DNA of 64,000 bases from an uncultured Anaerolineaceae bacterium (GCA_964475265.1 CAYYVY010000003.1:1500-65499), one strand, 5' to 3'; shown: positions 17,627-59,957, counted from the stretch's first letter. The notes: generated by a model from the sequence alone, not told the origin. Numbers and translations: made by a program.

Positions 17627-17784
17627 GCCGGAAGCGACCTTGGCGCTGCGAGCCTGTTCCCGGTAAAGGCGTGCAGGCGCGAAGATTTTTTAACCGTACA
17701 GTTGCATCACGCAAAATAGAGATTCCAATCGATACGCTGGCACGCCAGCGAGGTTTCTGAGCGGCGTCCGGCCTCGATTGAAGT

Positions 17785-17958: not shown

Positions 17959-18078
17959 AATATTAAGTATAGTATACGGTCGCAAAGCGGAATAACTCAA
18001 TAGTATTCCAGTGTAGGGTGTCATCCGGGGAGATTGGCGAGTTCTACCGGTTTACGAAGGAAGCGGGAAGGAGGAATC

Positions 18079-18399: not shown

Positions 18400-18452
18400 C
18401 CGGGTTGTATCTCGAGACACAGCAGCTCCGACAGAATGGAAGCGGAAGAGGA

Positions 18453-29565: not shown

Positions 29566-31677
29566 TTATGGCGTGCAGGGATCTCCGGGGACGGCGCCGT
29601 CGGGGCAAGGAACGGTACACACCGGGTCTCCGCCCCTTTCGGATTGGACCAGGCAACCGAGGATGGGGGTCTTCGTCGGCAGCGGAGCGGGAATGTAGAC
29701 CTTGGTGCCGTCGACGTCCCCCTCGGTCTCGACGATAGCCCGCAGAATCCAGCAGATTCCATTCCAATCCGGGTTGTTGATCACCAACCAGGTTCCCTCC
29801 TGATTGCGGCCGATCACTTCGGCGCTTTCGCCCGCCAGCAGGTAGCCGGCATCTTCGTAATCGGTGCTGTCGCCTTTGCGGCAGGTGGTGTTCTGGGGGG
29901 CGAAGAGCATGGGCACGAGCGGCTCGGGCGTGGGTGTTGCGGTAGGTTCTTGCGTGGGTTGTTCGTCTGCAGAGGACGTATCACCGCCTTCGCTTTCGAG
30001 TTCGAAAGCGCCGGTGTCACAAGCGCTTCCCGAAGGTTGCGGTCTCGAGACGCCGCGTTGATCCTGCGCCACCGCAGCGGCGGCAACATCGCTGCAGTCG
30101 GTGACAAGATTGAAAGCGATACTGGTGGATGAGATGGCGAAGGTCGGTGTGAAACCACCATTATCGCTGAAGCTGCCCAGCATCGGATCCATGTTGATCG
30201 AAATACCGGGGCAATCACCGACATTGTCAATATTTTCACCGAGGGCCTGGAAGGATCCACCTCCAATATCACAATTTTCCTGCATGCCGGGATCATACAA
30301 AATGCTGTTCTTGATCTGCGTGTTTCCGACGATTTGGAATATCGATTTGCCTCTATCGGCGCTCCCGGCCTTCAACGTTGCGAAGCTTAAGGAAAGATCG
30401 CCAACGTTCAAGATGTTGGCGCCATTTTGGGACACAATGTTCGAGGAAAACGAGACGTTGGTTGCGATGACCTGTCCATGGTTAATGATTGCGCCTCCAT
30501 GATAAGCGATGTTTGAGTCAAAGGCGGATTCCTGAATTGTCGCGGTGCCCTGGTTGTATATGGCTCCGCCCGTAGCGTACATGCCCAGCGTGTAATTCTG
30601 GATGAAGTAAGTTTCGCTGATGTCTACGCTTCCGGCTTCATTATAGATGCCACCGCCGTGTCCAGGACTTCCCGCGGGAGGTTGAAGGCCAGCGGTGTTG
30701 TTCTCGAAGGTGATTTCGTCCCTTAGGGTGAGGTCCCCGTTATGACTGTAGATCGCGCCGCCATTTTGCGCACAACCGTTCAGCTCGAAAAGGGTGCTGG
30801 CGATGTCGAAACGACCGTTCCAGATGTAGATCGCCCCGCCGTTGCTGGGTGAGGTAGAATTTTGGACCATCGCTGTGTTCTCATGGAAGGTATTTCCGCC
30901 GAGGGTAAAGCGGCCGTCTTCGGCGTAGATGGCGCCGCCATGCGAGCGAGATTCATTGTTGAGGAAGGACACGTTGTAGAAGGCGAACTGCGCTTCGGCG
31001 CTTTCGCTGTAAAGCGCGCCGCCCTGCCAGGCGATGTTTTCACGGAAGGTCGTGTGGTTGAGAGTCATGGGGATGCCGACGTCCCCGGCGCTGAAGATAG
31101 CTCCACCTTGGTATGCGTGGTTGTCCAGGAAAATCGTGTCCTGATCGGAAGTGACGGTTCCGCGGTTGAAAATCGCGCCTCCGACGGTTTGACTGAGATT
31201 GGCTTCCAGGGTTACCTGATTCAAGGTGAGTCCACCTCCGTCGTTATAGATCGCGCCGCCGCCGGGATCGACTTCATCTGGATTTTCCTCGCTTCTGCCG
31301 CCGTATAAGCTCATTTCGTCTAACCGCAAACCGCCTTCAGCGGTAATGAAGAAGAAGCGAAATTTGTGGTTCGCCGATGGAGAACGTTGCAGCAGCGCTG
31401 CGTTGCCGTTGATGCGCATATTCGTGGTGATGATCGGGAGTGCGTTGTAGCCGTGACCGCCGTCGTCGTTATCCGCGGAATTGAAGGTGTAGGTGCAATT
31501 CGGATCGAGATGGATGATGGTGGTGTCGTTGTTTGCGTTGGCTGTATTAATGGCGTTGACCAGGTCGTTCACGCTGCAGTTGACATTGATTTCGGAGGGT
31601 GGGTTGCAGCCGGCAAGCAGGATAGTGATGAACAAGGCTGTAAATATCAAGGCGCTGGATTTCATTTTTATATTCAT
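29566..31677 (-). CDS. secreted lipoprotein with polymorphic-membrane-protein-type (GGAIxN) beta-helix repeats and a C-terminal SH3-like domain
   Basis: Lipobox ILLAGC. There are more than 10 repeats of GGAIYN/GGAIFN/GGALYS at roughly 25-aa spacing. A Thr/Pro linker follows, then EDAGYLLAGESAEVIGRNQEGTWLVINN (SH3b-like). Confidence 0.65.
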   Translation of the reverse strand: MNIKMKSSALIFTALFITILLAGCNPPSEINVNCSVNDLVNAINTANANNDTTIIHLDPNCTYTFNSADNDDGGHGYNALPIITTNMRINGNAALLQRSPSANHKFRFFFITAEGGLRLDEMSLYGGRSEENPDEVDPGGGAIYNDGGGLTLNQVTLEANLSQTVGGAIFNRGTVTSDQDTIFLDNHAYQGGAIFSAGDVGIPMTLNHTTFRENIAWQGGALYSESAEAQFAFYNVSFLNNESRSHGGAIYAEDGRFTLGGNTFHENTAMVQNSTSPSNGGAIYIWNGRFDIASTLFELNGCAQNGGAIYSHNGDLTLRDEITFENNTAGLQPPAGSPGHGGGIYNEAGSVDISETYFIQNYTLGMYATGGAIYNQGTATIQESAFDSNIAYHGGAIINHGQVIATNVSFSSNIVSQNGANILNVGDLSLSFATLKAGSADRGKSIFQIVGNTQIKNSILYDPGMQENCDIGGGSFQALGENIDNVGDCPGISINMDPMLGSFSDNGGFTPTFAISSTSIAFNLVTDCSDVAAAAVAQDQRGVSRPQPSGSACDTGAFELESEGGDTSSADEQPTQEPTATPTPEPLVPMLFAPQNTTCRKGDSTDYEDAGYLLAGESAEVIGRNQEGTWLVINNPDWNGICWILRAIVETEGDVDGTKVYIPAPLPTKTPILGCLVQSERGGDPVCTVPCPDGAVPGDPCTP

Positions 31678-40454: not shown

Positions 40455-40647
40455 ATACGATTAGATATTCTATCGCAGAGAAACGAAAAGTCCCTGCAGC
40501 ATGTTTTTCATGTTATCTGCTATAATACGCCGGTCGCTCGGATCTGAAGGACCGAGACGAAAAAAGTTCGACCTTTATGCATACCGCCCCGGGTCCAGGC
40601 GGAAACCCTCGGACCGTTGGGCATCTCACTCAAGGGAGGAGATAGCC

Positions 40648-41520
40648 GTGTCAGAATCATCCGAATCCGTTAAACGCAAGAAAATAACCACACGTACCTT
40701 CCAGCAGAAAAAGGCGCGCGGCGAGCCGATCACCGTGCTCACGGCCTACGACTACGCCACCGCACTGGCCGTAGACCTGGCAGAGATCGATGCCATCCTG
40801 GTCGGAGACTCGCTGGGCATGGTGGTTCTGGGCTACGAGAACACCTTGCCGGTGACGATGGACGAGATGCTGCATCACTGCAAGGCCGTGGCCAGGGGCG
40901 CCAAGTATCCGCTCTTGATTGGCGACATGCCGTTCATGTCCTATCAGGTTTCAGTCGAAGAAGCGGTACGCAATGCAGGACGCTTCCTCAAGGAAGCGGG
41001 GATGGACGCTGTGAAGCTGGAAGGCGGGCGCGAGCGTGTCCCGGTGATCGAGGCCATCGTTGCCGCGGGAATTCCGGTGCAGGGGCACCTCGGCCTCACG
41101 CCGCAGTCGGTGCATCAATTTGGGGGATATCGCGCCCAGGGCAAATCGGCGCAGGCCGCCAAACGGCTGCTCGAGGATGCCTTGCTGCTGCAGGAAGCCG
41201 GCTGCTTTTCTATCGTCTTCGAAACGATTCCCACGCGCCTGGGCCGTTTGATCTCGGAGCGGCTGGAAATTCCCACGATCGGCATCGGCGCGGGAGCCGC
41301 TTGCGACGGGCAGGTGCTGGTCTCGCACGACGTGCTGGGACTCTTCGAGCGCTTCACCCCGCGTTTCGTGAAAAAGTACGCCGACCTGCACGGTGAAATG
41401 GTAAGAGCCTTCGCTGCCTATAACAGCGACGTGACGAGCGGCCGCTTTCCAACGGACGAACACAGCATCGAGATGCCGGATGAGGAGTGGGAAGCGCTGA
41501 CTGCGCTGCTCGATGACTGA
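40648..41520 (+). CDS. panB: 3-methyl-2-oxobutanoate hydroxymethyltransferase
   Basis: GTG at 40648 lies 6 nt after GGGAGGAG. ITVLTAYDY, ILVGDSLGMVVLG and GDMPFMSY. Confidence 0.9.
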   Translation: MSESSESVKRKKITTRTFQQKKARGEPITVLTAYDYATALAVDLAEIDAILVGDSLGMVVLGYENTLPVTMDEMLHHCKAVARGAKYPLLIGDMPFMSYQVSVEEAVRNAGRFLKEAGMDAVKLEGGRERVPVIEAIVAAGIPVQGHLGLTPQSVHQFGGYRAQGKSAQAAKRLLEDALLLQEAGCFSIVFETIPTRLGRLISERLEIPTIGIGAGAACDGQVLVSHDVLGLFERFTPRFVKKYADLHGEMVRAFAAYNSDVTSGRFPTDEHSIEMPDEEWEALTALLDD

Positions 41521-41531
41521 GAGACGGAATT

Positions 41532-42452
41532 ATGGGGCGTGAGTCGGTCTTGATCGCCGGGACCGGTGCACTGGCGTGCTACTTCGCCGCACGCCTGGCG
41601 CCGCATGTCGAAGTCACGCTGCTGGGCACATGGCTGCAGGGGATCGCCGCGCTCCAGGAGAGCGGCGTGCAGCTGGTTGCAGCAGATGGTGAAGCAGGTT
41701 CCTACAAAGTGCGCGCCACGAACGATCCGGCGGATTGCGTGGGGCACGCCTGCGCCCTGGTTCTGGTGAAATCCTGGCAGACCGAGCGTGCGGCTGAGCA
41801 ATTGACTGCTTGTTTGGATGAGGATGGCGTGGCGCTGACGCTGCAAAACGGTTTGGGCAATTACGATATCCTTCGGTGCATCCTCGGCCGATCGCGGGCG
41901 GCGCAAGGGGTGACGACCACAGGCGCAACCTTATTGGGACCGGGCCGTGTTCGTGAGGGTGGAAAAGGGGCCATCCTCGTCGCCGAGCATCCGCGAGCGG
42001 CAGCGTTGGTCGACTTGTTGAAGACGGCGGGCTTTGCGGTTGAAATTGTCACAGACATGGAAAGCGTGCTCTGGGGGAAGATGGTCGTCAATGCGGCGAT
42101 CAATCCGCTGACGGCGATCCTGGGGGTTCCCAACGGAGTCTTGCTGGAGCGCCCGCATGCGCGCAGGTTGATGCAGGCTGTTGCAGCGGAAGTGGCTGCC
42201 GTGGCGCGGGCTCGCGGCGTTTCTTTGCCCTACGATGATCCGATCGCACAAGTGGAACGGGTTGCACACCAGACTGCAGAAAACCGCTCCTCCATGCTGC
42301 AGGATGTCACCCGGGGCGCGCCGACCGAAATCGACGCCATCAACGGTGCCATCGTGCAAGCGGCTGAGGAAATGAACCTGGACGTGCCGGTCACAAAAAC
42401 ACTCTGGCACTTGATTCACGGCATGATTTCGGGCAATCAGGGAGAGGTGTGA
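41532..42452 (+). CDS. panE: 2-dehydropantoate 2-reductase
   Basis: VLIAGTGALACYFAARL Rossmann motif, and SSMLQDVTRGAPTEIDAINGAIV (ApbA_C). Confidence 0.85.
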   Translation: MGRESVLIAGTGALACYFAARLAPHVEVTLLGTWLQGIAALQESGVQLVAADGEAGSYKVRATNDPADCVGHACALVLVKSWQTERAAEQLTACLDEDGVALTLQNGLGNYDILRCILGRSRAAQGVTTTGATLLGPGRVREGGKGAILVAEHPRAAALVDLLKTAGFAVEIVTDMESVLWGKMVVNAAINPLTAILGVPNGVLLERPHARRLMQAVAAEVAAVARARGVSLPYDDPIAQVERVAHQTAENRSSMLQDVTRGAPTEIDAINGAIVQAAEEMNLDVPVTKTLWHLIHGMISGNQGEV

Positions 42453-43288
42453 TGAGAATCGTGGAGAGCATACTAGAACTACGAACAGCACGCGGGCAAC
42501 TCGAATCGCCATTAGGCTTCGTACCGACGATGGGGTTCCTGCACGAAGGGCACCTGTCGCTCGTGCGTCAGGCGCGTCAGGAATGCGGAAGCGTCGCGGT
42601 GAGCATTTTCGTCAATCCCACGCAGTTCGGACCGCAGGAGGATTTGGCCGCCTACCCGCGGGATCTCGAACGCGATCTGGGACTTCTCAAAGCCGAAGGG
42701 GTCGATCTGGTTTGGACGCCGACGACGGCGACGATGTATCCGGACGGCTACCAGACCTGGGTGTCGGTCGAAGAATTAACGCAGCACCTGGAGGGTGAGC
42801 AGCGGCCGGGGCATTTTCGCGGCGTGACGACGATCGTGGCGAAATTGTTCAACGCCGTGGGGCCCGATCGGGCCTACTTCGGGCAAAAAGATGCCCAGCA
42901 GGCGACGGTGATTCGCCGCATGAGCGCCGATTTGGATTTTCCCATTCAGATCGTCGTTTGTCCAACCGTGCGGGAAGCGGACGGTCTGGCAAAGTCGAGC
43001 CGCAACACGTACTTAAACGAAGCACAACGAAAGGCCGCGACGGTGCTTTTTCGCTCGCTGAATGCAGCCGTGCAGGCATTCGAAAGCGGGGAGCGCAAGG
43101 CGCAAACGCTGCGGGAGACGATGTCGACGGTGCTTGCCGGAGAGCCGTTGGCGGAGGTGCAGTACATATCTGTGGCCGATCCGGACACCCTGGAAGAATC
43201 GTCGGGAGAGATCACACGGGCACTGCTTTCGATGGCCGTTTTCATTGGCAAGACGCGTTTGATCGACAACATGCTGGTTGGAGAGTGA
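42452..43288 (+). CDS. panC: pantoate--beta-alanine ligase
   Basis: GFVPTMGFLHEGHLSLV and FGQKDAQQ. ATG 42452 is preferred to GTG 42449 on RBS spacing. Confidence 0.9.
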   Translation: MRIVESILELRTARGQLESPLGFVPTMGFLHEGHLSLVRQARQECGSVAVSIFVNPTQFGPQEDLAAYPRDLERDLGLLKAEGVDLVWTPTTATMYPDGYQTWVSVEELTQHLEGEQRPGHFRGVTTIVAKLFNAVGPDRAYFGQKDAQQATVIRRMSADLDFPIQIVVCPTVREADGLAKSSRNTYLNEAQRKAATVLFRSLNAAVQAFESGERKAQTLRETMSTVLAGEPLAEVQYISVADPDTLEESSGEITRALLSMAVFIGKTRLIDNMLVGE

Positions 43289-43312
43289 TTGTAGAGCTGA
43301 GGAGAGAGAATC

Positions 43313-44077
43313 ATGCTGTTAGCCATTGACATCGGCAACACGAACATCACCCTGGGCCTGTATCAGGCTGCAGAAATGAAAGCAGCCTGGCGTTTGGCGA
43401 CGGCGCACGAACGCATGCCCGACGAGTATGGACTGCAGATGTTGGGACTGCTGCAGCACGTCGAACATGGACCGGACGTTGTGGACGGGGTGGTGATGGC
43501 TTCGGTGGTGCCGCCGCTCACGGGTACCTTTCAACAGGCGTGCAAGGAATACATCGGCCAGACGCCGTTGGTGGTCGATGCCGGCGTGAAAACCGGTGTG
43601 CGCATCCGCTACGAGGATCCGAAGGCTGTCGGCGCCGACCGGGTGGTCGACGCGGCGGCGGTGCAGCACTTGTATGGCGGCCCGGCGTGCGTCGTAGATT
43701 TCGGTACCGCGACCACGTTCGACGCCATTTCCGCCGAGGGGGACTATCTGGGGGGAGCCATCGCGCCGGGAATCGGAATCGCCGCAGAGGCACTCTTTCA
43801 ACGCACGGCGAAGCTGCCGCGCGTGGAACTCTCCCGACCCCCGGCGGCGATCGGTAAGAACACCGTCCATGCCATGCAGTCCGGCCTGCTGTATGGTTAT
43901 GTGGGTCTGGTGGAAGGCATGGTGGACCGCTTCCGAGCCGAGTTGGGTCCTAAGATGAAGGTTATTGGCACGGGGGGATTGACCGAGATCATCGCAGCAG
44001 AAACGACTGTGATTCAAATCGTTGCCCCATGGCTCACGCTCGATGGTTTGCGCCTCATCTGGGAAATAAACTGCTGA
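43313..44077 (+). CDS. coaX: type III pantothenate kinase
   Basis: MLLAIDIGNTNITLGLY, VDFGTATTFD and GTGG. Confidence 0.9.
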   Translation: MLLAIDIGNTNITLGLYQAAEMKAAWRLATAHERMPDEYGLQMLGLLQHVEHGPDVVDGVVMASVVPPLTGTFQQACKEYIGQTPLVVDAGVKTGVRIRYEDPKAVGADRVVDAAAVQHLYGGPACVVDFGTATTFDAISAEGDYLGGAIAPGIGIAAEALFQRTAKLPRVELSRPPAAIGKNTVHAMQSGLLYGYVGLVEGMVDRFRAELGPKMKVIGTGGLTEIIAAETTVIQIVAPWLTLDGLRLIWEINC

Positions 44078-45266: not shown

Positions 45267-47327
45267 TCAGCTTATCTTGTCCGCCGCCAGAAGTTCTGCG
45301 TCCTGCGCTCGCGCAACCTTGCGTCCTTCCGCCACGTCTACCGTGGTTAACAGCCAACCACCGATGATGAAGAAGGCGATCAAACTCAGAATGGCGGGCC
45401 GGCTGCTGGCGAACGCCGCGCCGGCGGCTGCAAAGAGGATTGGACCCAGGACGGCGGAAAACTTCTCCATTACGCCGAACAGGCCGAAAAATTCTCCACT
45501 TTTCGCCGCGGGTGACATGACGGCGTACAGGCTGCGGCTTAGCGCCTGGCTGCCGCCCTGGACCGTGGCGACCATCCAGGCCAGGAACCAAAATTCGATG
45601 GTCGAGTTAAGGAAGTAGCCCCAGGCCGCAATGACTGCATACGCCAGCAGGGCCAGGATGATGCTGTGCTTCGTGTCCAGTTTGGCGGCGAGTTTGGAGA
45701 AAAGCCGGTCTCCGACAAGCCAGGCAAACAGCAGCCCAACGATCTGCAAGACCAGGATCAGGCCGAGGATGACGAGCAGACTTTGTTGGCGCGCGGCCGG
45801 CATGACCTCGAATGCGGCGATCGAGATCGTGTTTCCGGCGCTTTCCGCATTCCGATCCGGTGTGTTGATCAGGGAAAGGGTATGGACTCCGGCTTCGTCG
45901 ATCTCGATGGTGTCGGAGAGGACGCCGTAACGCGTAGTGGAAGCGTACGTATCGAGCGTAAGCTCCGTTCCTTCCGAGTCCAGGTAGGGTTCTCCGTCGA
46001 TTTCGACGGCCCAGATGCCCCCGTCCGGTCCTTCGCTGTACGTGAATTGAACTTCCTGCCCGTTGAAAGTGAAATCGAGGCGCGTGTCCGAATCACTGGT
46101 TTGTCGATAGATAACGTCTTCTACGCTTTCACCGAACAGGCGATTGATGAACTCGAAGAAACCGCCCCCGCTGATCTCGCTGGCAGAGACTTCCTCGTCG
46201 CGCCAATTGCCTGTGAACGAAATCGTCTCATGATCCACATCATGTATACCTTCGCCGGCGGCTGCAGCAGTGGCCTGGAAGACCGCGGGCTTCGATCCTG
46301 TAACGTCTGCAGGGAGCAGTTTAAGGCCCAGGACGCCAACGAGGGGCAGCATGATTATGTTGAAGACGATGAAAGCCAGATAGAACGATCTGCGTTTTTC
46401 ACGAGGGCTGGGAATTCGGCCGAAGATCAAACTGAAGGGAATGCCTACGAACTGCACCAGCAGAAGGGCGAGAATCAACTCGACCGTGCCGAAGCCAAGT
46501 TCGGCGCCGTAGATCGCGGCGACGCCGATGATCGTGCCGATGCCATCGTTGTAAATCAAGAAGGCGAGTAGAAATTTAAAGAGTTGACGATATTGGCGAA
46601 TATCTTTGAAGGTTTCACGCAGTCGTTTGAAACTTGCCGAGATAACGTTCTCTCTAGAACCAAGTTCAGCGGTGGCCGCGGGCGGTTCGGGTATGATGCG
46701 CAGCATTGGGACGGTGAAAATCGCCCACCAGACGGCAACACTGAGAAACGATAGGCGGGAGCCCAACGTCCCGGGCAGCATTTGAATCATGGCCACGTTT
46801 ACCGCCAGAAGGATGCCGCCGCCCAGGTATCCGAGTGCGTATCCGCGAGTCGAAACTCGATCGCGATCGTCTTCCTTGGCCACATGCGGCAGCAGTGCGT
46901 CGTAGAAGACATTCGCTCCAGTAAATCCAATGCGGCCGAGCACGAACAGGATCGACGCCAATACCCAGTCACCCGTCTGAATGAAAACCATCAGCCCGGT
47001 GGCCACGATGCCGATACCTGCGAAAACCGACAGAAAACCTTTTTTACCGCGTTTGATGTCGGATATCGTGCCGAGGATCGGGGAGAGCAGAGCGATGACG
47101 AAGAGCGAGATGGATAGGCCCAGGCTCCAAAGCGCCGTCGCAGCGGCGCGACTGGGCAGCGTCGCGCCGGCCACCTGGCTGTAATAAATCGGCAGCACGG
47201 CGGCCAGGATCGTCGTAGCGAAGGCGGAGTTTGCCCAATCGTACAGCGTCCAAGCGCGGATGCGGCGTTTGTATTCCATTTCACTGATTCCGTTATACGC
47301 GGCGACGGTTGCGGCTGCCATGTGCAC
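45267..47327 (-). CDS. MFS transporter, UMF1 (Atg22-like) family, with a roughly 175-aa soluble insertion
   Basis: AWTLYDWANSAFATTILAAVLPIYY is the UMF1 N-terminal signature. Residues about 340-515 (nt about 45783-46310) are non-hydrophobic and beta-rich (RLDFTFNGQEVQFTYSEGPDGGIWAVEIDGEPY ... GVHTLSLINTPDRNAESAGNTISIAAFEV). Confidence 0.7.
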   Translation of the reverse strand: MHMAAATVAAYNGISEMEYKRRIRAWTLYDWANSAFATTILAAVLPIYYSQVAGATLPSRAAATALWSLGLSISLFVIALLSPILGTISDIKRGKKGFLSVFAGIGIVATGLMVFIQTGDWVLASILFVLGRIGFTGANVFYDALLPHVAKEDDRDRVSTRGYALGYLGGGILLAVNVAMIQMLPGTLGSRLSFLSVAVWWAIFTVPMLRIIPEPPAATAELGSRENVISASFKRLRETFKDIRQYRQLFKFLLAFLIYNDGIGTIIGVAAIYGAELGFGTVELILALLLVQFVGIPFSLIFGRIPSPREKRRSFYLAFIVFNIIMLPLVGVLGLKLLPADVTGSKPAVFQATAAAAGEGIHDVDHETISFTGNWRDEEVSASEISGGGFFEFINRLFGESVEDVIYRQTSDSDTRLDFTFNGQEVQFTYSEGPDGGIWAVEIDGEPYLDSEGTELTLDTYASTTRYGVLSDTIEIDEAGVHTLSLINTPDRNAESAGNTISIAAFEVMPAARQQSLLVILGLILVLQIVGLLFAWLVGDRLFSKLAAKLDTKHSIILALLAYAVIAAWGYFLNSTIEFWFLAWMVATVQGGSQALSRSLYAVMSPAAKSGEFFGLFGVMEKFSAVLGPILFAAAGAAFASSRPAILSLIAFFIIGGWLLTTVDVAEGRKVARAQDAELLAADKIS

Positions 47328-47493: not shown

Positions 47494-49035
47494 CTACGGC
47501 TTCGTGAAAGGCCGATCTTTCTCCTCGATCATCTTAAGCATTTCTTGCTGCAGTTGCGAAGCAATTGTCGGATGGGTGGTGAGTAGATTCTGCAATTCTT
47601 CCGGATCATCGCGCAAGTTGTAGAGCTCGTACACACCGTCGTGCCCCTCGTAGCCGCGGTAGTGGATCAATTTGAAATCGCCTTTGATCATCGCCACCGT
47701 CGCTTTGCGTAAAGGAGCCAGTTTGGGGTTGCTTTTGGCTTCAACGACGAAGATGCTTCGCTCGCTGGGATGATCTTGTGCGGCATATGGGGGAAGAACC
47801 AATCCTTCACACCACGAAGGGATTGAACGACCGGCAAGGTGAAGCAGGGTAGGCAGAATGTCGATACAGCTTGTGGGGAGATAGACGTCCTGACGCTCTT
47901 TCTGACCGGGCCGTGTAATCAACAGCGGGACACGGACGATCGGTTCGAACAACGTAGGTGTGGTGTGTTTCCATATCTTGCGTTCAAACATCTCACCATG
48001 GTCGGACGTCAGCACGACAATGGTGTTGTCGTAGAACCCATTGGTTTCCAGATAATGATCCAATCGCCCGAACTCCGCATCGACGTAGGCGATGTATTCG
48101 TCGTAGAAGACGCGTTTCTCGTCCAAAACGTGCTGCCGATCTTCGAAGTTGGCAAAGAAATGATCGGGTTTCGGCGTTGGCGTCCAACCATCCCAGAAAA
48201 TGTTTACAAATTCCTCGCGTGGGCTGTAGGGATCATGTGGAGGCATCATGTGTAAATAACTGATGAAGGGTTGAGGCCACTCGGTCATTTGTTCTTGGAT
48301 CCAATCAATCGTCTCTTCGAGCGGGTAGAGCATGTCGTGATATCCCGGTACACCGCGGGGAAACCTTCGTTCCAAACGTCGCATTATGGATTGGTTCACG
48401 AACTTCTTTATCGACCATAAGATCGGGAAAAGGAAAAGAGAATTGGACGGTTCTCCCGGTTGTTTGTAATGACTGCGTTCGCCCTGGGAAGCGATACCAT
48501 AATCGCGCCGGAAGAGGTTATCGGAGACATTGAAGTCCACCAAGGCGATTTGATTGGGGAGTGTGAAAAGGTCGAGGTTTTGTTGGAGATAGAACAAAAT
48601 GATGTTTACCAAGAGATTGTGGGAAAACCCGACGCGGGTGTAGGTCTCTGCGTTGAATTCGCTGAAAATATTTCTGGAAGTGAATGAATCAAGCGGGGTT
48701 GCGTGGTGGCTGAATGCCCGATGCGTCCAGGGGAGCGTTCCGGTGAGTATGGAGGAGGTGCCGGGCGTGGTGAAGTTGCCGCCGGCGTAATGGTTGTGAT
48801 AGACGGTTGCTCTCTCTGCAAAGCGTTTCAAGTTGGGTGTCGTCTCCCGATGGAATCCGTAGAGAGACACATCGCGGGCTGCGAGCGTGTCGAAAACTAC
48901 GATGAGCACATTGGGTTTGTTCGCATTGGTTTTATTCCGGCCAAACGAAGGACTGGAGCCGGCAACCCACGGTGTGGCGAGCGAGATCAAGGAAGCCATT
49001 TTCAGGAATTCGCGCCGGTTAATTTTTGGTCTCAT
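47494..49035 (-). CDS. Tat-exported sulfatase-fold (alkaline-phosphatase superfamily) enzyme, Thr-type nucleophile motif
   Basis: Tat motif NRREFLKM. Metal and active-site motifs VLIVVFDTL, NFTTPGTSSILTG (TxPxT where sulfatases have CxPxR) and LTSDHGEMF. Confidence 0.75.
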   Translation of the reverse strand: MRPKINRREFLKMASLISLATPWVAGSSPSFGRNKTNANKPNVLIVVFDTLAARDVSLYGFHRETTPNLKRFAERATVYHNHYAGGNFTTPGTSSILTGTLPWTHRAFSHHATPLDSFTSRNIFSEFNAETYTRVGFSHNLLVNIILFYLQQNLDLFTLPNQIALVDFNVSDNLFRRDYGIASQGERSHYKQPGEPSNSLFLFPILWSIKKFVNQSIMRRLERRFPRGVPGYHDMLYPLEETIDWIQEQMTEWPQPFISYLHMMPPHDPYSPREEFVNIFWDGWTPTPKPDHFFANFEDRQHVLDEKRVFYDEYIAYVDAEFGRLDHYLETNGFYDNTIVVLTSDHGEMFERKIWKHTTPTLFEPIVRVPLLITRPGQKERQDVYLPTSCIDILPTLLHLAGRSIPSWCEGLVLPPYAAQDHPSERSIFVVEAKSNPKLAPLRKATVAMIKGDFKLIHYRGYEGHDGVYELYNLRDDPEELQNLLTTHPTIASQLQQEMLKMIEEKDRPFTKP

Positions 49036-49042
49036 TGAATAC

Positions 49043-49561
49043 TCACAGATTCCGTGCGATGACGACTATGACCCCGATGATGTCGAGAAACACATATAGA
49101 AAGGTCAGGATCGTAAGCCGTTCTGCCACGAGGCGGGTTATCTTTTGCAACTTTGATATTCTAGGTACGATGATGAGTGATATTGCCAGGGTCATCAGGC
49201 AAGCAACGAACATCCAACGTAAGGGGGAATACTGCTGTACAAGGTGTTGAAAGACGATGGCCATGATCGAGAGTTCAATCAAGAGGACTGCACACGTGGT
49301 TAGGAAAGGTTCTGGCAGCCATCTCTTGGGGATCAGCAAACCGATGACGAGTATGATGAGATAGATGAGGAGTGTCTCGAAAATCGTAAACATCAGATGG
49401 TATGCCACGCTGCCAACGATGTCGTCCCCACTCATGTACAGAATCCACGAGGGGACGTTTCTGAGCATGATGATGATCGACCAAACGTGGATTGGAAAGG
49501 CGCACAGAACGAATACGTGCATCAGATCTTGTGGAGAAAAGCGTTTTCGCAGGAATTTCAA
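49043..49561 (-). CDS. hypothetical polytopic membrane protein (paired with the sulfatase-fold gene)
   Basis: 172 aa with about 5-6 TM helices. The stop lies 7 nt before the sulfatase-fold start. Paralogue of 51171-51731. Confidence 0.6.
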   Translation of the reverse strand: MKFLRKRFSPQDLMHVFVLCAFPIHVWSIIIMLRNVPSWILYMSGDDIVGSVAYHLMFTIFETLLIYLIILVIGLLIPKRWLPEPFLTTCAVLLIELSIMAIVFQHLVQQYSPLRWMFVACLMTLAISLIIVPRISKLQKITRLVAERLTILTFLYVFLDIIGVIVVIARNL

Positions 49562-49611
49562 CGTTGCTTGACCTCGCTTGGAGATAGTCTCGTCATTTTA
49601 GAGAGGCAAGG

Positions 49612-51162
49612 CTAGTCTGAGTCCGATTGGATAAAAGGCGCATCCTTCTCCTCAATCTTCGCCAGCAGCTCATTTTTTAATGCTAACGCGATAGACGATT
49701 GAGTTGAGTAAAGATTTTCCAGTTCGTCAGGATCCTGTTCTAAATTATAGAGTTCGTATACGTCGTCGTATCCTTGATAACCCCGGTAATAGATCAGTTT
49801 GAACTCGCCTTTAATCATCGCGACGGTGGCTTTGCGCAGCGGTCCTATTTTGGGATTGCTTTTCGCTTCCACAGCGAAGATGCTGCGGTCGGGAGGTTGA
49901 TTTTGCGGCGTGTAGGGGGGAAGCACCGTGCCTTCAACCCAGGATGGAATCTGACGCTTTGTAAGATGCAGGAGGGTAGGCAGGACGTCCACGGAACAAG
50001 TCGTGGTGCGCACATCTTGCCGTGAAGTTTGGCCGGGGGTGGAGATCAGCAGTGGTACGCGGATGATGGGCTGGAACAGCGTCGGCGTAGTGTGCTGCCA
50101 TATCTTGCGTTCGAACATCTCCCCGTGGTCGGATGTAAGGATTACGATACTGTTGTCGAATACGCCAGTTTCCTGCAAATAGTCATGCAGACGTCCGAAC
50201 TCGGCATCCACGTAAGCTATGAATTGATCATAAAAAATGCGATGTCCATCGAGGATGTGTTGTCGGTTGGGGAAGTCGCCGAAAAAGTGGTCGGGTTTTG
50301 AAGGGGGTTGCCAACCATCCAGATACAAATCGATGAAATCTTTCCGGGGGCGGTAGGGATCGTGTGGCGGCATCATGTGCAGGTAGGCCAGGAAGGGTTG
50401 TGACCAGCGCCTCAACTGTTCCATGATCCAGTCGATGGTGTCTTCAAGCGGATACAGCACGTCATGGTCGCCGGGAATGCCCTTGGGGAAGTTGCCCTCG
50501 AGGCGATCGATCAGCAAGTTATTGATTTTTTCCCGAATAGACCAGAGGATCGGGAACAGAAAGAGAGAATCAGACAACCTATCGGGTTTTTTGAAGTAAA
50601 AAGTCTCGCTTTGGGAGGCGATCGAGTAATCCCATGGGAATATGTTATCGGCGAGGTTGTAATCGATCAAAGCCACCTCGTTCGGCAAAATGAATTCATC
50701 GAGGTTGGCTTTCAAATGGTCGAGGATCAGGCTGGCGAAGAAATTGTGTGTGAAGCCGATGCGTGTGTAATCACCGCCGCCAAATTCGCTGAAAACGTTA
50801 CGGTCGTTGTAGGCATCGAGCAGGGTGCCGTAGTGATTTATTGCCCTGTGGGTCCACGGGTAAGTCCCGGTGAGCAGCGAAGAAGTTCCCGGAGTCGTGA
50901 AATTGCCTGCGGAGTAATGCCTGTGAAACACTGTTGCGTGTTCCGCGAAACGCAGCAGGTTGGGGGTAGTTTCTCGATTGAAGCCGTAGAGTGAGGCATC
51001 ATGCGCGGAAAAAGCGTCGAAGACGATGATGATGACGTTGGGAGTGTCCGCATTTGTTCTCTGTTCTTCGAATTCGGGGTTCGACGCAGATAGAATTGGA
51101 GAGGTGAAAGGGATAAGGGATGCCAGCTTGAGAAATCCACGACGATTGATGGTTGGTTTCAT
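49612..51162 (-). CDS. Tat-exported sulfatase-fold (alkaline-phosphatase superfamily) enzyme, paralogue
   Basis: Start at MKPTINRRGFLKL (ATG 51162). The 97-aa upstream extension in the track overlaps the membrane gene and is rejected. It carries the same NFTTPGTSSLLTG and LTSDHGEMF motifs and is collinear with 47494-49035. Confidence 0.75.
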   Translation of the reverse strand: MKPTINRRGFLKLASLIPFTSPILSASNPEFEEQRTNADTPNVIIIVFDAFSAHDASLYGFNRETTPNLLRFAEHATVFHRHYSAGNFTTPGTSSLLTGTYPWTHRAINHYGTLLDAYNDRNVFSEFGGGDYTRIGFTHNFFASLILDHLKANLDEFILPNEVALIDYNLADNIFPWDYSIASQSETFYFKKPDRLSDSLFLFPILWSIREKINNLLIDRLEGNFPKGIPGDHDVLYPLEDTIDWIMEQLRRWSQPFLAYLHMMPPHDPYRPRKDFIDLYLDGWQPPSKPDHFFGDFPNRQHILDGHRIFYDQFIAYVDAEFGRLHDYLQETGVFDNSIVILTSDHGEMFERKIWQHTTPTLFQPIIRVPLLISTPGQTSRQDVRTTTCSVDVLPTLLHLTKRQIPSWVEGTVLPPYTPQNQPPDRSIFAVEAKSNPKIGPLRKATVAMIKGEFKLIYYRGYQGYDDVYELYNLEQDPDELENLYSTQSSIALALKNELLAKIEEKDAPFIQSDSD

Positions 51163-51170
51163 AGTATGGC

Positions 51171-51731
51171 TCACAGGATCCGGGTGAATACGACGACCAG
51201 GGCGACGATATCGACAAAAATATAGAGGAATGTAAGAACGGTCAGCCGTTTGATGATGGCGACGAAGATGTTGTTTAGCTTCTGGATGCGTGATACTGCA
51301 AATGCGACCACGATGGCCAGCAGTATCGCCGCGACGACCAGGAGGCGTCGATAGAGTACATATTTGAGCGTAAGGTATTGAATGGCGATCGCCAAGAGGG
51401 AGAGTTCGATCAACAACACAAAGCAAAAAGGAACGATCGATGGTCCGATCCACCGTTTGGGGATCAATAGTCCCAATAACAAAATACAGGCGAATACAAA
51501 GATGCTCTCGACGAGCATGAAGGTCAAAGTATAGGAAACGGCGCCAACAAGTTCACTTCTTGTTAGGTGAAGCAGCCAGGAAGGAACATCGCGGAACATG
51601 TTGGGGATCGCCCATACATGGATCGGAAACGAACAGGTGACGAAAATCTGTATTAACTCTTCTGAAGAAAACCTGTGCTTAAAGATAGCCAAGATCCTTG
51701 AGCCTTTCTTCCAGAGTTTCCCGATCTTCAT
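51171..51731 (-). CDS. hypothetical polytopic membrane protein, paralogue of 49043-49561
   Basis: Collinear with its paralogue from FKHRFSSEEL onward. The start is uncertain (GTG 51785, ATG 51731 or TTG 51692), and all candidates overlap the end of the upstream gene. Confidence 0.55.
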   Translation of the reverse strand: MKIGKLWKKGSRILAIFKHRFSSEELIQIFVTCSFPIHVWAIPNMFRDVPSWLLHLTRSELVGAVSYTLTFMLVESIFVFACILLLGLLIPKRWIGPSIVPFCFVLLIELSLLAIAIQYLTLKYVLYRRLLVVAAILLAIVVAFAVSRIQKLNNIFVAIIKRLTVLTFLYIFVDIVALVVVFTRIL

Positions 51732-53523
51732 CACTCGTAACTGGCGGCTTGGATGCTGAGGTTTCACGGGGTTGGAATTTTCCACCGATCACCAGATCCG
51801 GAACGTCGGCGTACGAGGGCGATGCGAGTTGTTCCAAGCTCGTGTTGGCAAACAGCACGCCCGGCACGAGGCCCGGGTCGATGCAGTGATCCGCACCCCA
51901 GTGATCGAGATTCCTTTCGAGTGCGTCGGCCTCCCAATTTCCGAGTCCCGTCTGCCCCGAAGCTCGATATCCGCTATTGAATCCCACTACAAGATCCGGC
52001 GCGTAGGGCGTGAGCGGGCCGTGGAACGCTTCCTCGCCCGTCCAGACCGTCCGCACAATCTGTCGGTTATCGGGTCCTTTCCAAGAGAGCAGCTCGTCTT
52101 TGATTTGGGCGGACAGCGCAGCTTGTTCGTTGTCGGCGACAATGCCGAGCTTCTCTCGCCCGGACATGTTGAGGTAAATGCTCGATAATCCCACCGCATA
52201 AGCACGGGTCTTCTGCCAGAGGACGTCCTGAAGTCCCCCTCGTGCCTCGTTGGTCTCAGGGGCAAGATGGCCATGTTCAATGAGCCAGCGATTCAGGTGA
52301 ACTTTGTAGTCGAAGCTGCTAAAGCCATGATCGGAGAGCACCAGAACTCTTGCATCTTGATGACCGCATTTTTTAATTTGCGCCACGATGCGGCCGAACA
52401 AGGCGTCCAATTTCAGGTACCATGATTCGACAATGTCCTCTCGGTCTCGCCAAAACATGTGCTGAAGACGATCGAGGGAGTCGAAAACGATGGCGAGAAT
52501 GCCTTCGTCGAAAGCTTGAATCTGACTCATAAGTACTTTTTCGCGAGACTCGAGGATCGAATCACACAAATATAAAAAGTGGTCGTCCTGAATGAATCCC
52601 TCGTCCAATGCGGTCGTGTCCTGTGGCCAGCCGAGGGTGTGAAACGGGCCGACATTTATCCACAGCCCCTTGGCGAAACCACCTGGATTGGCGTAAGGCC
52701 ACACAGCTTTTTGGGGATGTATCTGCAGCGGGAGGAAGTACAATCCCGGTCCATGGGAATTTTCGGTCAGCAGGACTTGCGTGATGGCGCGCACGGAAAC
52801 ACCGAGCCGCAGTTTGAAAGCAAGTTCGACAAAAGGACTCCAACGATCCTTTTCCAGCGCAATGATGTTCTTGTTGATTTGCAATCTGGCGTTGTTGGCG
52901 TCGATCCATTCGATCTCGAAAGCAAGTGAGGCTTGCTTGTCATCGGTTTTGTCCGATTTAAGCAGCGGTCCCTTCAAGGTGCCGTGTGCTTTTTGCTTGC
53001 CATCCGGTGAGAGGGTTTCGACGTTGGTTTTGTAGGTCTTTTCTGTGGGGTTGGGGTCAAGCTTGAAATAGGTTCCCACACCCAGGCGGCCGAGGATGTC
53101 TGGCGTCCCGAGGCCGGGGATCGTTTGTACGGGGGATTGCCTGCGGGCGGGAAAAGTTGCCGGCCACCAAAGGGTCGTAGCGGGATAGCCCATCTCTACG
53201 GCGTGTTCGAATACGGTATGGGCGTTGTGCGGGGGGACGAACTGCACGCCGAGCGCCGATTTCCTTGTGGGCAGTAAGGAAACGTGCAGGGCGTAATTGT
53301 CTGGATTGCGGTGTACGAAATCGAAGAGTCCGTGTTCGCCCGGGTTCATGCCGCTGGCGATACTGGTCCAGGAAACTTCACTTTGTGCAGGATTAGCAAC
53401 CGCCAAGCGGGCATAACCCTTGTTTGCGACATACTCTCCCAGGTTTGGCAGTTTCCCTTGGCTGTGCAGCCGTTCGAACAGGGTGGGATCGAACGCATCG
53501 AATCCGATAATAAAGGTTTTCAT
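51679..53523 (-). CDS. alkaline phosphatase family protein (type I phosphodiesterase / nucleotide pyrophosphatase-like)
   Basis: MKTFIIGFDAFDP, SEVSWTSIASGMNPGEHGLFDF and VLSDHGF form the PF01663-like motif order. Confidence 0.7.
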   Translation of the reverse strand: MKTFIIGFDAFDPTLFERLHSQGKLPNLGEYVANKGYARLAVANPAQSEVSWTSIASGMNPGEHGLFDFVHRNPDNYALHVSLLPTRKSALGVQFVPPHNAHTVFEHAVEMGYPATTLWWPATFPARRQSPVQTIPGLGTPDILGRLGVGTYFKLDPNPTEKTYKTNVETLSPDGKQKAHGTLKGPLLKSDKTDDKQASLAFEIEWIDANNARLQINKNIIALEKDRWSPFVELAFKLRLGVSVRAITQVLLTENSHGPGLYFLPLQIHPQKAVWPYANPGGFAKGLWINVGPFHTLGWPQDTTALDEGFIQDDHFLYLCDSILESREKVLMSQIQAFDEGILAIVFDSLDRLQHMFWRDREDIVESWYLKLDALFGRIVAQIKKCGHQDARVLVLSDHGFSSFDYKVHLNRWLIEHGHLAPETNEARGGLQDVLWQKTRAYAVGLSSIYLNMSGREKLGIVADNEQAALSAQIKDELLSWKGPDNRQIVRTVWTGEEAFHGPLTPYAPDLVVGFNSGYRASGQTGLGNWEADALERNLDHWGADHCIDPGLVPGVLFANTSLEQLASPSYADVPDLVIGGKFQPRETSASKPPVTSDEDRETLEERLKDLGYL

Positions 53524-53548: not shown

Positions 53549-53749
53549 TCACTGATCCGTGGATGGATCTACATCCGTGCTTTCGATTTCTGCAGGCGTG
53601 TCGCTTCCCGATTCTCGGAATCGTCGCTTCAACCTCGCCCAAAACATGCGAATCTTGCTTGAAAACACCAGAACCATCCCAGATATCGCCGCAAAGAGAA
53701 TCGCTAAGAGTTGAAAAATCTGGCCTCCGGTGTTCGGATCAATATACAT
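53549..53749 (-). CDS. hypothetical small membrane protein (66 aa)
   Basis: MYIDPNTGGQIFQLLAILFAAISGMVLVF (one TM helix) followed by a basic then acidic tail. It sits directly upstream of the AlkP-family gene. Confidence 0.4.
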   Translation of the reverse strand: MYIDPNTGGQIFQLLAILFAAISGMVLVFSSKIRMFWARLKRRFRESGSDTPAEIESTDVDPSTDQ

Positions 53750-53964: not shown

Positions 53965-54564
53965 TTACTTGCGCTGACGGTAGAGCTTGGGATCAACCGT
54001 GCGAACCATCGAATCCAGATCGAGTGCGCAACCGAGGAATTGAGCGATCTTCTCGACGTAGGTTTGTGGATCGTTGACGATTTCCTTATAAGGCATATCG
54101 ATACGGGCAATGTAGTCTTGTTGGGAGAGCCATACTTCGATCTCTCGCAGGTGATTCTCGAGGATCGTTTTCATTTTCTCGTCATCGATCTTATCGGGGT
54201 TTTCACCGCGGCGAACGATCATCTTTCGCTGTGAGGCAAGCACCTCGCCGAGTTCGCGCTGCATAAAGATGACGTGATAGTGCAGGTCTTTGGGAAGCTT
54301 GGGAAGAAGATAGGAAATGATCTTGACGACTTTGCCTCCGGCGTTTTCCACCCAGGAAGTCTCCCCTTCCTTCAGCTGCTTCACTGCTTCGTATTCGTAA
54401 TACCCCAGGGGATTATCATCGTCCGCCTGGCGGACGCCATCGGTGAGGAGTTCTAGCCCGCCGCTTGCGAGCATATTCATCATCATGGATGTCCCTGAGC
54501 GGGGCAATCCAGATACAACGACGATGGTGTCGGATATTTTGGGGTCGATCGTGGGGTTGGTCAT
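53965..54564 (-). CDS. sulfotransferase family protein
   Basis: VVVSGLPRSGTSMMMNML is the PAPS 5'-phosphosulfate-binding loop. The roughly 200-aa size is typical of bacterial stand-alone sulfotransferases. Confidence 0.7.
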   Translation of the reverse strand: MTNPTIDPKISDTIVVVSGLPRSGTSMMMNMLASGGLELLTDGVRQADDDNPLGYYEYEAVKQLKEGETSWVENAGGKVVKIISYLLPKLPKDLHYHVIFMQRELGEVLASQRKMIVRRGENPDKIDDEKMKTILENHLREIEVWLSQQDYIARIDMPYKEIVNDPQTYVEKIAQFLGCALDLDSMVRTVDPKLYRQRK

Positions 54565-58475: not shown

Positions 58476-58718
58476 TGGTGTTTCATCCACTACCCGTTTA
58501 CGCCGGTGAAGGACGAGGATTGGGTTTCTACTATTCCTTTGATTGATATGCACCAGAGGGCCGGGGCGATGGCCGTGATATCGGGTTGACGGTACAATTT
58601 GACTTCTTGATCCACATCTCTACAGTAAAGTTGGATCGGCTCAGTGTACAATGGATGCAGGATTTCTTCCCTGATAGATGATGGGAAGCGCGACGCATTC
58701 GATAACGAGGACGGCCAC

Positions 58719-59957
58719 ATGCCGCAGAACGATGGAATTCCGGTTATAAAAGATCGGCATATTCTCTTGGGCGTGACGGGGTCGATCGCGGCCTACAAGG
58801 CTGTAGATCTGGCTTCCAAGCTGACTCAGGCAGGCGCCATCGTGGACGTAATCCTCACACCGGCGGCGCAGCACTTCGTGACTCCGCTGACATTTCAATC
58901 TGTCACCGGAAGGCGGGCCTACACGGATGACGATTTGTGGGGCAGCGAAGCGCACGTCATCCATGTTGGTCTGACCCACGAGATCGACTTGCTCGTCTTG
59001 GCGCCGGCGACGGCGAATACGATTGCCAAATTGGCCCACGGACAAGCCGATAATTTCCTCACCCTGACGGCGCTGGCCGCGACTTGTCCACTTGCCATCG
59101 CGCCGGCGATGGACGCCGGGATGTTCGCCCATGCGGCGACCCAGGCGAATCTCACGATCCTTAAAGAACGCCAGGCGTATATTCTCGGGCCCACTGAAGG
59201 CCGCATGGCTTCGGGGTTGGTCGGCAAGGGACGCATGCTGGAGCCGGAGGAGATATTCGGCCACGTACGCTTGATTCTCGGTCAGCGTGGGGATCTGCAG
59301 GGGCGGACCGTCGTCGTCACGGCCGGAGGTACACAGGAACCGATCGATCCGGTGCGCGTGATCGCCAACCGTTCCTCCGGCAAACAAGGATTTGCCCTGG
59401 CACAAGCGGCGATCGATCGCGGCGCGCAGACGATCCTCATCAGCGCGCCAACCATGCTGCCGACACCGGTCGGAGCCGAGCGAGTCGATGTCGATACCGC
59501 AGAGGAACTGCGCCAAGCAGTATTGGAACGAATCGAGGGCGCAGATGTGCTGCTCATGGCTGCTGCGGTGGCCGATTTCCGGCCAAAGCGCTCGGTCGAT
59601 GAGAAGATCAAGCGCAGCCAGGGGGTGCCCGAAGTGAAATTGGAGCCCACGGAGGACATCCTTGCATTTGTAACGGCGCAGCGCAAGAAGAGCAAGAAAC
59701 CGATCGTGCTCGTCGGATTCGCTGCGGAGAGTCAGGATCTGGTCAAAAACGCACGGGCGAAGCTGCAGCAGAAGGGCATGGACCTGATCGCCGCCAACGA
59801 CATCACGGCGATTGATGCGGGTTTTGGCGTGGATACCAATCGAGTTACTGTATTGGCCAAAGACGGCGACCCGATAGAATTGCCTGTAATGAGCAAATAC
59901 AAGGTTGCCGACTATCTTTTAAATCATGTGGTGGAATTATTGGCATCGGCCGATTGA
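58719..59957 (+). CDS. coaBC: bifunctional phosphopantothenoylcysteine decarboxylase / phosphopantothenate--cysteine ligase
   Basis: Start at MPQNDGIPV. ILLGVTGSIAAYKAVDLASKL (flavoprotein domain) and a C-terminal DFP domain (VVVTAGGTQEPIDPVRVIANRSSGKQG). Confidence 0.9.
   Translation: MPQNDGIPVIKDRHILLGVTGSIAAYKAVDLASKLTQAGAIVDVILTPAAQHFVTPLTFQSVTGRRAYTDDDLWGSEAHVIHVGLTHEIDLLVLAPATANTIAKLAHGQADNFLTLTALAATCPLAIAPAMDAGMFAHAATQANLTILKERQAYILGPTEGRMASGLVGKGRMLEPEEIFGHVRLILGQRGDLQGRTVVVTAGGTQEPIDPVRVIANRSSGKQGFALAQAAIDRGAQTILISAPTMLPTPVGAERVDVDTAEELRQAVLERIEGADVLLMAAAVADFRPKRSVDEKIKRSQGVPEVKLEPTEDILAFVTAQRKKSKKPIVLVGFAAESQDLVKNARAKLQQKGMDLIAANDITAIDAGFGVDTNRVTVLAKDGDPIELPVMSKYKVADYLLNHVVELLASAD

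Follow-up and report, generated by a model that had tools for sequence, protein, structure and literature searches.

The window analysed here is a stretch of 64,000 nucleotides from an uncultured Anaerolineaceae bacterium (GCA_964475265.1 CAYYVY010000003.1:1500-65499), and its interval 47494-51162 encodes two sulfatase-like proteins sharing 63% identity, in the following termed paralogues A and B. An initial annotation, made from the sequence alone, had held that both proteins lack the formylglycine motif of sulfatases, with TxPxT in place of CxPxR, and that they are more likely phosphotransferases or phosphodiesterases acting outside the cytoplasm. According to open reading frame (ORF) calls, the interval carries three minus-strand genes and not two: between B and A lies a gene for a small protein with five predicted transmembrane (TM) helices, and a second gene of the same kind stands directly upstream of B (partners 1 and 2; Table 1). 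As set out below, A and B appear to combine a threonine-type active site, resembling that of the phosphoethanolamine transferases EptA and MCR-1, with a scaffold resembling that of choline sulfatase.

Threonine nucleophile position, scaffold and active-site residues

The motif in question reads NFTTPGTSSILTG in A (48739-48777) and NFTTPGTSSLLTG in B (50866-50904), spanning residues 87-99 in either protein, and takes the form NFTTPGTSS(I/L)LTG in both. At the place of the sulfatase signature C/S-x-P/A-x-R, A and B thus read T-T-P-G-T. The by-eye placement of Thr89 on the Cys/Ser that becomes formylglycine, and of Thr93 on the Arg, was correctly numbered and holds in rigorous alignments. In phmmer searches of PDB chains, Thr89 falls on the Cys of CGPSR in SpPMH (4upk) and Thr93 on the Arg, and Thr89 also occupies the equivalent position in three further sulfatases. 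The same pairing of Thr89 with Cys/Ser and of Thr93 with Arg is obtained by MAFFT alignment with E. coli AslA and with two BetC choline sulfatases encoded on plasmids, as well as by comparison of a family hidden Markov model (HMM) with BetC. Relative to BetC, AslA, EptA and MCR-1, Thr89 stands on the nucleophile column.

The family HMM was built from 225 sequences: A and B themselves, 104 genes from related loci and 119 homologues of 440 or more amino acids (aa) taken from databases. Identities within this set fall to about 41%. Throughout this set, Thr89 is invariant (225/225) and Cys or Ser at position 89 is found in none (0/225). Thr93 is present in 211 sequences (94%), the remainder having V, A or I, and Pro91 in 195 (87%). 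The metal-ligand motifs, which the initial annotation had regarded as kept, are indeed conserved, with D49 in 224/225 and both D345 and H346 in 225/225. Likewise, H262, H267 and H357 occur in every one of the sequences, and E348 in 217 of them (96%). Threonine cannot give formylglycine (PMC5066984). Judged by their residues, A and B should hence be unable to make formylglycine and would not be S1 sulfatases.

Export by the twin-arginine translocation (Tat) pathway had also been proposed, and the Tat signals of A and B are real. The N-termini, MRPKINRREFLKMASLISLA in A and MKPTINRRGFLKLASLIPF in B, contain S/T-R-R-x-F-L-K followed by a hydrophobic stretch. Across 40 relatives the RRxFLK motif is conserved, with R8 and K12 invariant and R7 and L11 present in at least 90%.

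By sequence and predicted fold, the nearest relatives of A and B are the choline-sulfatase/phosphonate monoester hydrolase (PMH) group of S1 sulfatases. Both proteins match Pfam PF00884 (Sulfatase) with 133 bits as well as the SGSH_C C-terminal domain, and the PF00884 fold comes with its N-terminal Asp and C-terminal Asp-His metal ligands. Of the NCBIfam models, that for choline sulfatase gives 125-136 bits, with 111-116 bits for arylsulfatase PRK13759 and 89-93 bits for PehA; each of these values is far under the curated cut-off. The LtaS, EptA, MCR and YejM models give 16-40 bits, those for LtaS and EptA together spanning 25-36 bits; EptA, MCR and CptA reach 16-29 bits versus cut-offs of 404-1200. 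An AlphaFold2 (AF2) model of A, computed from a 40-sequence alignment, was obtained with a predicted local distance difference test score (pLDDT) of 85.5 and a predicted template modelling score (pTM) of 0.87. In this model, Thr89 is the first residue of helix 89-98 and follows a beta-strand, as do the nucleophiles of the superfamily. The best Foldseek match is the Sinorhizobium choline sulfatase (E ~1e-21, TM-score ~0.6, ~20% identity). Relative to BetC, A and B carry a helical insertion of ~110 residues (~141-255).

The T-x-P-x6-TG spacing had been compared with that of nucleotide pyrophosphatases/phosphodiesterases (NPPs). This similarity is reflected in a Pfam PF01663 match, which is confined to residues 43-106/109 (35 and 45 bits) and covers profile positions 1-61/64 of 342. 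A match to the full-length NPP profile with its two-metal site (Asp-x3-His ... His) was not obtained for A and B.

For choline sulfatase (SmCS), the metal ligands have been described as Asp14, Asp296 and His297 and the formylglycine residue as Cys54; contacts with the sulfate oxygens have been proposed for Lys102 and Asn75, and the general-acid pair consists of His201 and Lys309 (PMC5870055). Arg58, four residues past Cys54, is the Arg of C-x-P-x-R. In the family of A and B, Cys54 is replaced by Thr89, Arg58 by Thr93 and Lys309 by the invariant His357; His201 is kept as His267. In the region of Lys102 (GFSHN, 136-140), where the alignment is uncertain by 1-2 residues, no Lys or Arg is conserved. 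The basic residues of the sulfate site and general-acid pair (Lys102, His201-Lys309) are thus not present as a set in A and B. Assignment of exact equivalents of SmCS Lys102, His104 and Asn75 was attempted and given up, as the alignment is unreliable beside the 110-residue insertion, and the claim is limited to the lack of a conserved Lys or Arg there.

The comparison with MCR-1 gives a different picture. In MCR-1, Thr285 is the phosphorylated acceptor and Glu246, Asp465 and His466 bind Zn1 (PMC5216409). His395 and His478 either hold a second zinc in one crystal form, where a residue of a neighbouring molecule takes part as well, or contact phospho-Thr285, and Glu468 orients His478 (PMC5216409). 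The residues were checked in an MCR-1.1 sequence taken from a plasmid. By the family HMM, Thr89 pairs with MCR-1 Thr285 and with the nucleophile Thr of EptA, D49 with E246, D345/H346/E348 with D465/H466/E468, and H357 with H478; by MAFFT profile alignment, H262 corresponds to MCR-1 H390 and H267 to H395. In the alignment, A and B therefore place a Thr nucleophile next to an Asp/Glu + Asp + His metal site, and equivalents of His390, His395, His478 and Glu468 are present as judged by alignment, not in three dimensions. On this basis, the active-site residue set of A and B appears to be that of EptA/MCR-1 and not that of sulfatases. Because the conserved residues coincide with those of phosphoethanolamine transferases (H262, H267 and H357 in 225/225), the family is best described as having a putative Thr-type, EptA-like active site on a choline-sulfatase-like (S1) scaffold. 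The proposal of an NPP/LtaS/EptA-like enzyme accordingly needs to be divided: the active-site residues match EptA/MCR-1, whereas overall sequence and fold place A and B beside the choline-sulfatase/PMH branch of S1.

Genes for a sulfatase maturation enzyme, either the formylglycine-generating enzyme (FGE) or the anaerobic sulfatase-maturating enzyme (anSME), were also looked for. No PF03781 or radical-SAM protein was found among the ORFs scanned in the 64-kb window. Since an ORF with an FGE domain lies near the cassette in just 3 of 85 related loci, the cassette shows no association with FGE. In one closely related locus (L001), a 720-aa protein with an FGE-sulfatase domain and BNR/sortilin-like repeats (16302-18464, minus strand) adjoins the cassette; it is absent at the matching place in the window.

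The five-helix partner and the surrounding gene cassette

The features of the interval and its neighbourhood are collected in Table 1. A longer ORF for B, reaching 51453 through an upstream GTG extension and overlapping the preceding gene, was rejected. The spacer from the stop of partner 1 to the start of A measures 7 nt in the junction sequence, and that from the stop of partner 2 to the start of B 8 nt. Partner 2 probably starts with TTG and overlaps the end of its upstream gene by 14 nt, an arrangement that recurs in many related loci.

Table 1. Features of the interval 47494-51162 and adjoining genes (positions in the window)
Feature	Position	Strand	Product	Basis or remark
Atg22-like transporter, major facilitator superfamily (MFS)	45267..47327	-		Pfam ATG22, 226 bits; downstream, same strand
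Paralogue A	47494..49035	-	513 aa	ORF; PF00884 and SGSH_C; alignments; AF2 model; Foldseek
Partner 1	49043..49561	-	172 aa	five predicted TM helices; between B and A
Paralogue B	49612..51162	-	516 aa	ORF; Pfam; A-versus-B alignment; motif translation
Partner 2	51171..51692	-	~173 aa	five TM helices; 45% identity to partner 1
NPP-like enzyme	51679..53523	-	614 aa	alkaline-phosphatase superfamily; PF01663, 101 bits
Small peptide	53549..53749	-	66 aa	single TM helix; ORF and alignment with four other loci
Sulfotransferase	53965..54564	-	199 aa	Pfam Sulfotransfer_3 and Sulfotransfer_1; head of the gene string

For a wider view, 85 related loci were gathered, nearly all from metagenome-assembled genomes of Chloroflexota/Anaerolineae; 49 of them are referred to as long loci. 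Within this collection, 86 of the 104 full-length family genes have a homologue of the five-helix (5-TM) protein directly upstream on the same strand. Another ten follow a further family copy, three lie at a contig edge and five show neither arrangement. Pairs of TM gene and enzyme gene are moreover repeated as units in the window as well as in L001 and L007. At 9971-20323 of L042, from one Anaerolineaceae genome, up to six Thr-type sulfatase-fold ORFs stand in tandem; one ORF is just 248 aa long and looks fragmentary, and a 5-TM gene is found upstream of the first ORF only.

The 5-TM proteins have no Pfam or NCBIfam match. Their family comprises 1095 representatives at 50% clustering, and the 150 of these that were listed are small standalone proteins of 130-241 aa. 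E62, E96, D160, W39 and Y54 are invariant, with the acidic residues E62, E96 and D160 located inside helices. In EptA-type enzymes, a five-helix domain is fused to the N-terminus of the catalytic domain; A and B begin with a Tat signal instead, and the 5-TM gene is separate.

Upstream of the 5-TM gene, a PF01663 gene of ~612 aa directly precedes in 42 of 72 testable cases, often with the 14-nt overlap. Its representative in the window, the 614-aa protein, lacks a signal peptide. Its NPP-like two-metal site is complete, Ser48 occupying the nucleophile position, and it is thus this neighbour, in contrast to A and B, that bears the NPP feature. In 46 orthologues, D9, S/T48, D351-x3-H355, D398-H399 and D545-H546 are conserved. 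For the 614-aa protein, neither a PDB sequence relative nor an NCBIfam model was found. Another PF01663 type, of roughly 560 aa, comes after the Wzm/Wzt genes in L002 and L004. The 66-aa peptide has an invariant N-terminus, MYIDPN-GG-FQ, and no Pfam match; it lies upstream of the ~612-aa gene in other loci as well and was found in 30 of the 49 long loci. Its version in L002 bears an N-terminal extension of ~25 residues.

The 199-aa sulfotransferase at the head of the gene string is presumably cytoplasmic and dependent on 3'-phosphoadenosine-5'-phosphosulfate (PAPS). Of the 49 long loci, 23 have a sulfotransferase within 10 kb, and 15 have one no more than 600 bp from the cassette. Individual loci add an ATP-sulfurylase/adenosine 5'-phosphosulfate (APS) kinase, with PAPS synthase nearby in several, and other loci contribute a Wzm/Wzt exporter, glycosyltransferases, a Wzy_C protein and an acyltransferase. 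The nearby genes for the NPP-like enzyme and the 66-aa peptide, joined in many genomes by sulfotransferase, PAPS synthase, Wzm/Wzt and glycosyltransferase genes, suggest an envelope lipid or glycopolymer as the target of A and B.

The Atg22-like MFS transporter was considered as a member of the cassette and is probably not part of its core, an orthologue being present in only 3 of the 85 loci, all of them close relatives. Its Pfam matches end at residue 335, and a non-membrane insertion of ~180 residues, beta-rich by eye, separates its two halves at roughly aa 340-525.

Further observations concern the wider window. G+C content is ~50-51% across the cassette (48001-52000) and 54-60% on either side of it (44-48 kb and 52-58 kb), and a second dip to 48-50% occurs at 4-10 kb. 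The cassette sits within a pantothenate/coenzyme A neighbourhood, with panB, panE, panC and a type III pantothenate kinase gene (40501-44077) on one side and coaBC (58644-59957) on the other, an arrangement that is the same in L001. A 989-aa protein at 1511-4480 (plus strand) has a weak TrwB/type IV coupling-protein domain and adjoins a low-GC stretch with a histidine kinase, a response regulator and a DnaB-like helicase fragment; this region may be a mobile element. At 29566-31677 (minus strand), a 703-aa protein is built of Chlamydia-PMP-type repeats, which suggests a surface protein.

Possible function of A and B

With a probability of roughly 0.55, A and B would be extracytoplasmic phosphoryl-transfer enzymes with Thr89 as nucleophile, each forming with its own 5-TM partner a two-polypeptide analogue of EptA/LtaS and acting on a lipid or glycopolymer of the envelope, possibly after its sulfation in the cytoplasm. 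The residue pattern, the fold, the export motif and the gene linkage are what the analysis shows; phosphoryl transfer is what we infer from the residues, and we likewise infer that enzyme and 5-TM protein associate physically, that the activity is that of a transferase and not of a hydrolase, and what the substrate is. Following export by Tat, Thr89, positioned at a helix N-terminus beside a metal held by D49, D345 and H346, would serve as covalent nucleophile. In a chemistry modelled on EptA/MCR-1 and LtaS, it would attack a phosphodiester to give a phospho-threonine intermediate. His262, His267 and His357 could bind the phosphoryl group or a second metal, with Glu348 orienting His357, and these four residues would thereby take over the roles of the sulfatase Arg and Lys residues. 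The phospho-group would then be handed to an acceptor, or to water. Each enzyme probably works on the outer side of the membrane, alongside the 5-TM protein whose gene lies just upstream, and the pair would be the two-polypeptide counterpart of the fused transferases that unite a membrane and a catalytic domain.

Several results speak against this explanation. Overall similarity points towards sulfatases and PMHs: the family HMM scores 119-135 bits with BetC compared to 42 with AslA, 38 with EptA and 28 with MCR-1, and every one of the 50 PDB structures ranked highest by Foldseek is an S1 sulfatase or a PMH. That the three His residues group around Thr89 is read from the alignment alone. Regarding the partner, the AF2 model of the 5-TM protein shows five helices at poor quality (pLDDT 67, pTM 0.46), a Foldseek search of the PDB with this poor model gave no match at E <=0.001, and an hhalign comparison of the 5-TM family with the membrane domain of EptA revealed no homology (probability 0.35%). 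Fused proteins with TM and catalytic parts were found neither among the best 120 enzyme relatives (all <=521 aa) nor among the best 150 TM representatives (all <=241 aa). Tandem paralogues that lack their own TM gene, as in L042, form a pattern more typical of scavenging hydrolases, and the linkage to sulfotransferase genes (23/49) would also fit a sulfate-ester substrate.

The active-site evidence applies identically to a hydrolytic function, according to which A and B would be exported or membrane-tethered phosphodiesterases or phosphomonoesterases that use a Thr nucleophile like NPP or PafA to free phosphate or to trim phosphodiester-linked polymers, the 5-TM protein being only an anchor or dock. 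Tat export is also seen for the phosphatases PhoD and PhoX, the N-terminal ~60 residues of A and B match the NPP Pfam profile, and PMH and choline sulfatase, the closest characterised relatives, are hydrolases. Tandem arrays of up to six enzyme ORFs, some without their own TM gene (L042, L054), resemble substrate-diversified hydrolases as well. For a simple scavenger, however, a near-obligate 5-TM partner with spacers of 7-8 nt and a co-conserved NPP-like enzyme are unexpected; moreover, neither pst nor pho genes appeared in the window or among the loci annotated with Pfam, and the neighbouring genes are those of glycan assembly and sulfation. Taken together, hydrolysis is a serious, if unlikely, candidate. 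A role on sulfate esters appears quite improbable. In this case, A and B would act as formylglycine-independent sulfatases or as extracytoplasmic sulfuryl transferases forming a sulfo-threonine, on the product of the neighbouring PAPS-dependent sulfotransferase. The scaffold is, after all, that of S1 sulfatases, sulfotransferase genes occur at the distances given above with PAPS synthase genes nearby in several loci, and a stable sulfo-enzyme has been reported for arylsulfatase A mutants carrying Ser, which makes hydroxyl attack on sulfate chemically feasible in this fold. Yet Arg58, Lys102 and Lys309 of choline sulfatase, belonging to the signature, the sulfate site and the general-acid pair, are all replaced in A and B, half of the long loci lack a sulfotransferase nearby, and a natural Thr- or Ser-nucleophile sulfatase of the superfamily was not found in the literature search. 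According to SulfAtlas, Thr-type PF00884 proteins are not to be taken as sulfatases absent experimental evidence (PMC5066984). Two weak NCBIfam matches were followed up and dismissed: a 'manganese-dependent arylsulfatase' match offers no Thr-type precedent, as Enterococcus EfAS uses Cys61/formylglycine, and for the match 'PhoY alkaline phosphatase' the term 'PhoY' was not found in the literature search.

It is least probable of all that A and B are inert binding or regulatory proteins on a sulfatase fold that detect or bind some component of the envelope on behalf of the 5-TM partner. The alkaline-phosphatase-fold domain of YejM/PbgA has a mainly regulatory role, and YejM models match A and B weakly (33-40 bits). 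The nucleophile, the three metal ligands, three more His and Glu/Arg residues are, however, essentially invariant in the 225 sequences, which is the signature of a working active site.

Returning to phosphoryl transfer outside the cytoplasm, the earlier preference for a phosphotransferase or phosphodiesterase over a sulfatase gains support from the residue set; it is this set that phosphoryl transfer would follow from, and the sulfotransferase linkage keeps a sulfated substrate in consideration. A bolder proposal, which we regard as improbable, takes sulfotransferase, 66-aa peptide, NPP-like enzyme, 5-TM protein and Thr enzyme as an unrecognised envelope-modification machine of Anaerolineae. 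Here, a head group, possibly sulfated, would be loaded onto a lipid carrier in the cytoplasm, cross the membrane by or with the 5-TM protein, and be moved by the Thr enzyme to a surface polymer via a covalent Thr intermediate. In the most radical version of this proposal, the transferred group would be sulfate; if true, this would make the Thr enzyme the first sulfuryl transferase of the alkaline-phosphatase superfamily to act outside the cytoplasm.

Consequences for annotation and relation to known systems

Relatives of A and B number at least 530 in species-representative genomes, almost all from Chloroflexota/Anaerolineae, and appear to form a large, uncharacterised family largely confined to Anaerolineae. 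Database names range from 'sulfatase-like hydrolase/transferase' (NCBI) to 'arylsulfatase A-like enzyme' or 'choline-sulfatase' (JGI). The warning that automated annotation as sulfatase would be misleading is justified, and the problem has been published before: PF00884 holds many Thr-type sequences that cause false sulfatase annotations, and 30 of the 59 PF00884 seed sequences have Thr at the catalytic position (PMC5066984). Since Thr-type non-sulfatases within PF00884 were already described, the core point of the initial annotation is an instance of a known problem. Metagenome studies take PF00884 as a marker for formylglycine sulfatases and deduce from it the degradation of sulfated polysaccharides, for Chloroflexi too (PMC9723792). 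Genes of the A/B type pass both PF00884 and COG-type 'arylsulfatase' assignment and would inflate sulfatase counts in metagenomes.

What appears to be new is the combination of a large Anaerolineae family, an S1/BetC-like scaffold with EptA-like residues, Tat export and a dedicated 5-TM partner, lacking any Pfam or NCBIfam match, within a conserved cassette with an NPP-like enzyme and, frequently, a sulfotransferase. A description of such a family was not found in a literature search of incomplete coverage, which amounts to absence of evidence only. In terms of enzyme evolution, a choline-sulfatase/PMH-like scaffold with the residues of a phosphoethanolamine transferase would represent a natural exchange of nucleophile and charge network in the alkaline-phosphatase superfamily. 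The cell envelope of Chloroflexota is, to our knowledge, poorly characterised, and the near-obligate pairing with a 5-TM protein and the presence of an NPP-like enzyme in the cytoplasm are indications of an envelope pathway not described so far.

Among known systems, the S1 choline-sulfatase (BetC)/PMH group comprises the best relatives in sequence and fold, with BetC being ~26-29% identical over 93% of the length. Shared features are the two-subdomain architecture with an SGSH_C-like C-terminal part, the metal ligands (Asp, Asp-His) and the equivalent of His201. In contrast to this group, A and B have Thr89/Thr93 for Cys/Arg, His357 for Lys309 and no basic residue in the Lys102 region, and they possess an additional invariant His262, the ~110-residue insertion, a Tat signal and a dedicated 5-TM partner gene. 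NPPs (PF01663) have in common with A and B the Thr nucleophile and the T-x-P-x6-TG spacing, and the candidate ligands of A and B (Asp, Thr, His-x4-His, Asp-His, His) follow one another in the order known from the two-metal site of NPPs. However, only the first ~60 profile positions match A and B, the remainder being sulfatase-like, and the true NPP-like protein of the locus is the 614-aa neighbour. EptA, MCR-1 and LptA, and more loosely LtaS and OpgB, resemble A and B in the Thr nucleophile, the Asp/Glu + Asp-His metal site and the three His plus Glu equivalents. Further common points are an extracytoplasmic site of action and a link to five TM helices, which for A and B are predicted and encoded by a separate gene. 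Overall similarity to these transferases is nevertheless low (25-38 bits) and far under the family cut-offs, and the catalytic domain of A and B is larger and has a sulfatase-like fold. Furthermore, the membrane part of A and B would be a polypeptide of its own, for which no homology with the membrane domain of EptA could be detected, and A and B are exported by Tat and not by means of an inserted N-terminal membrane domain.

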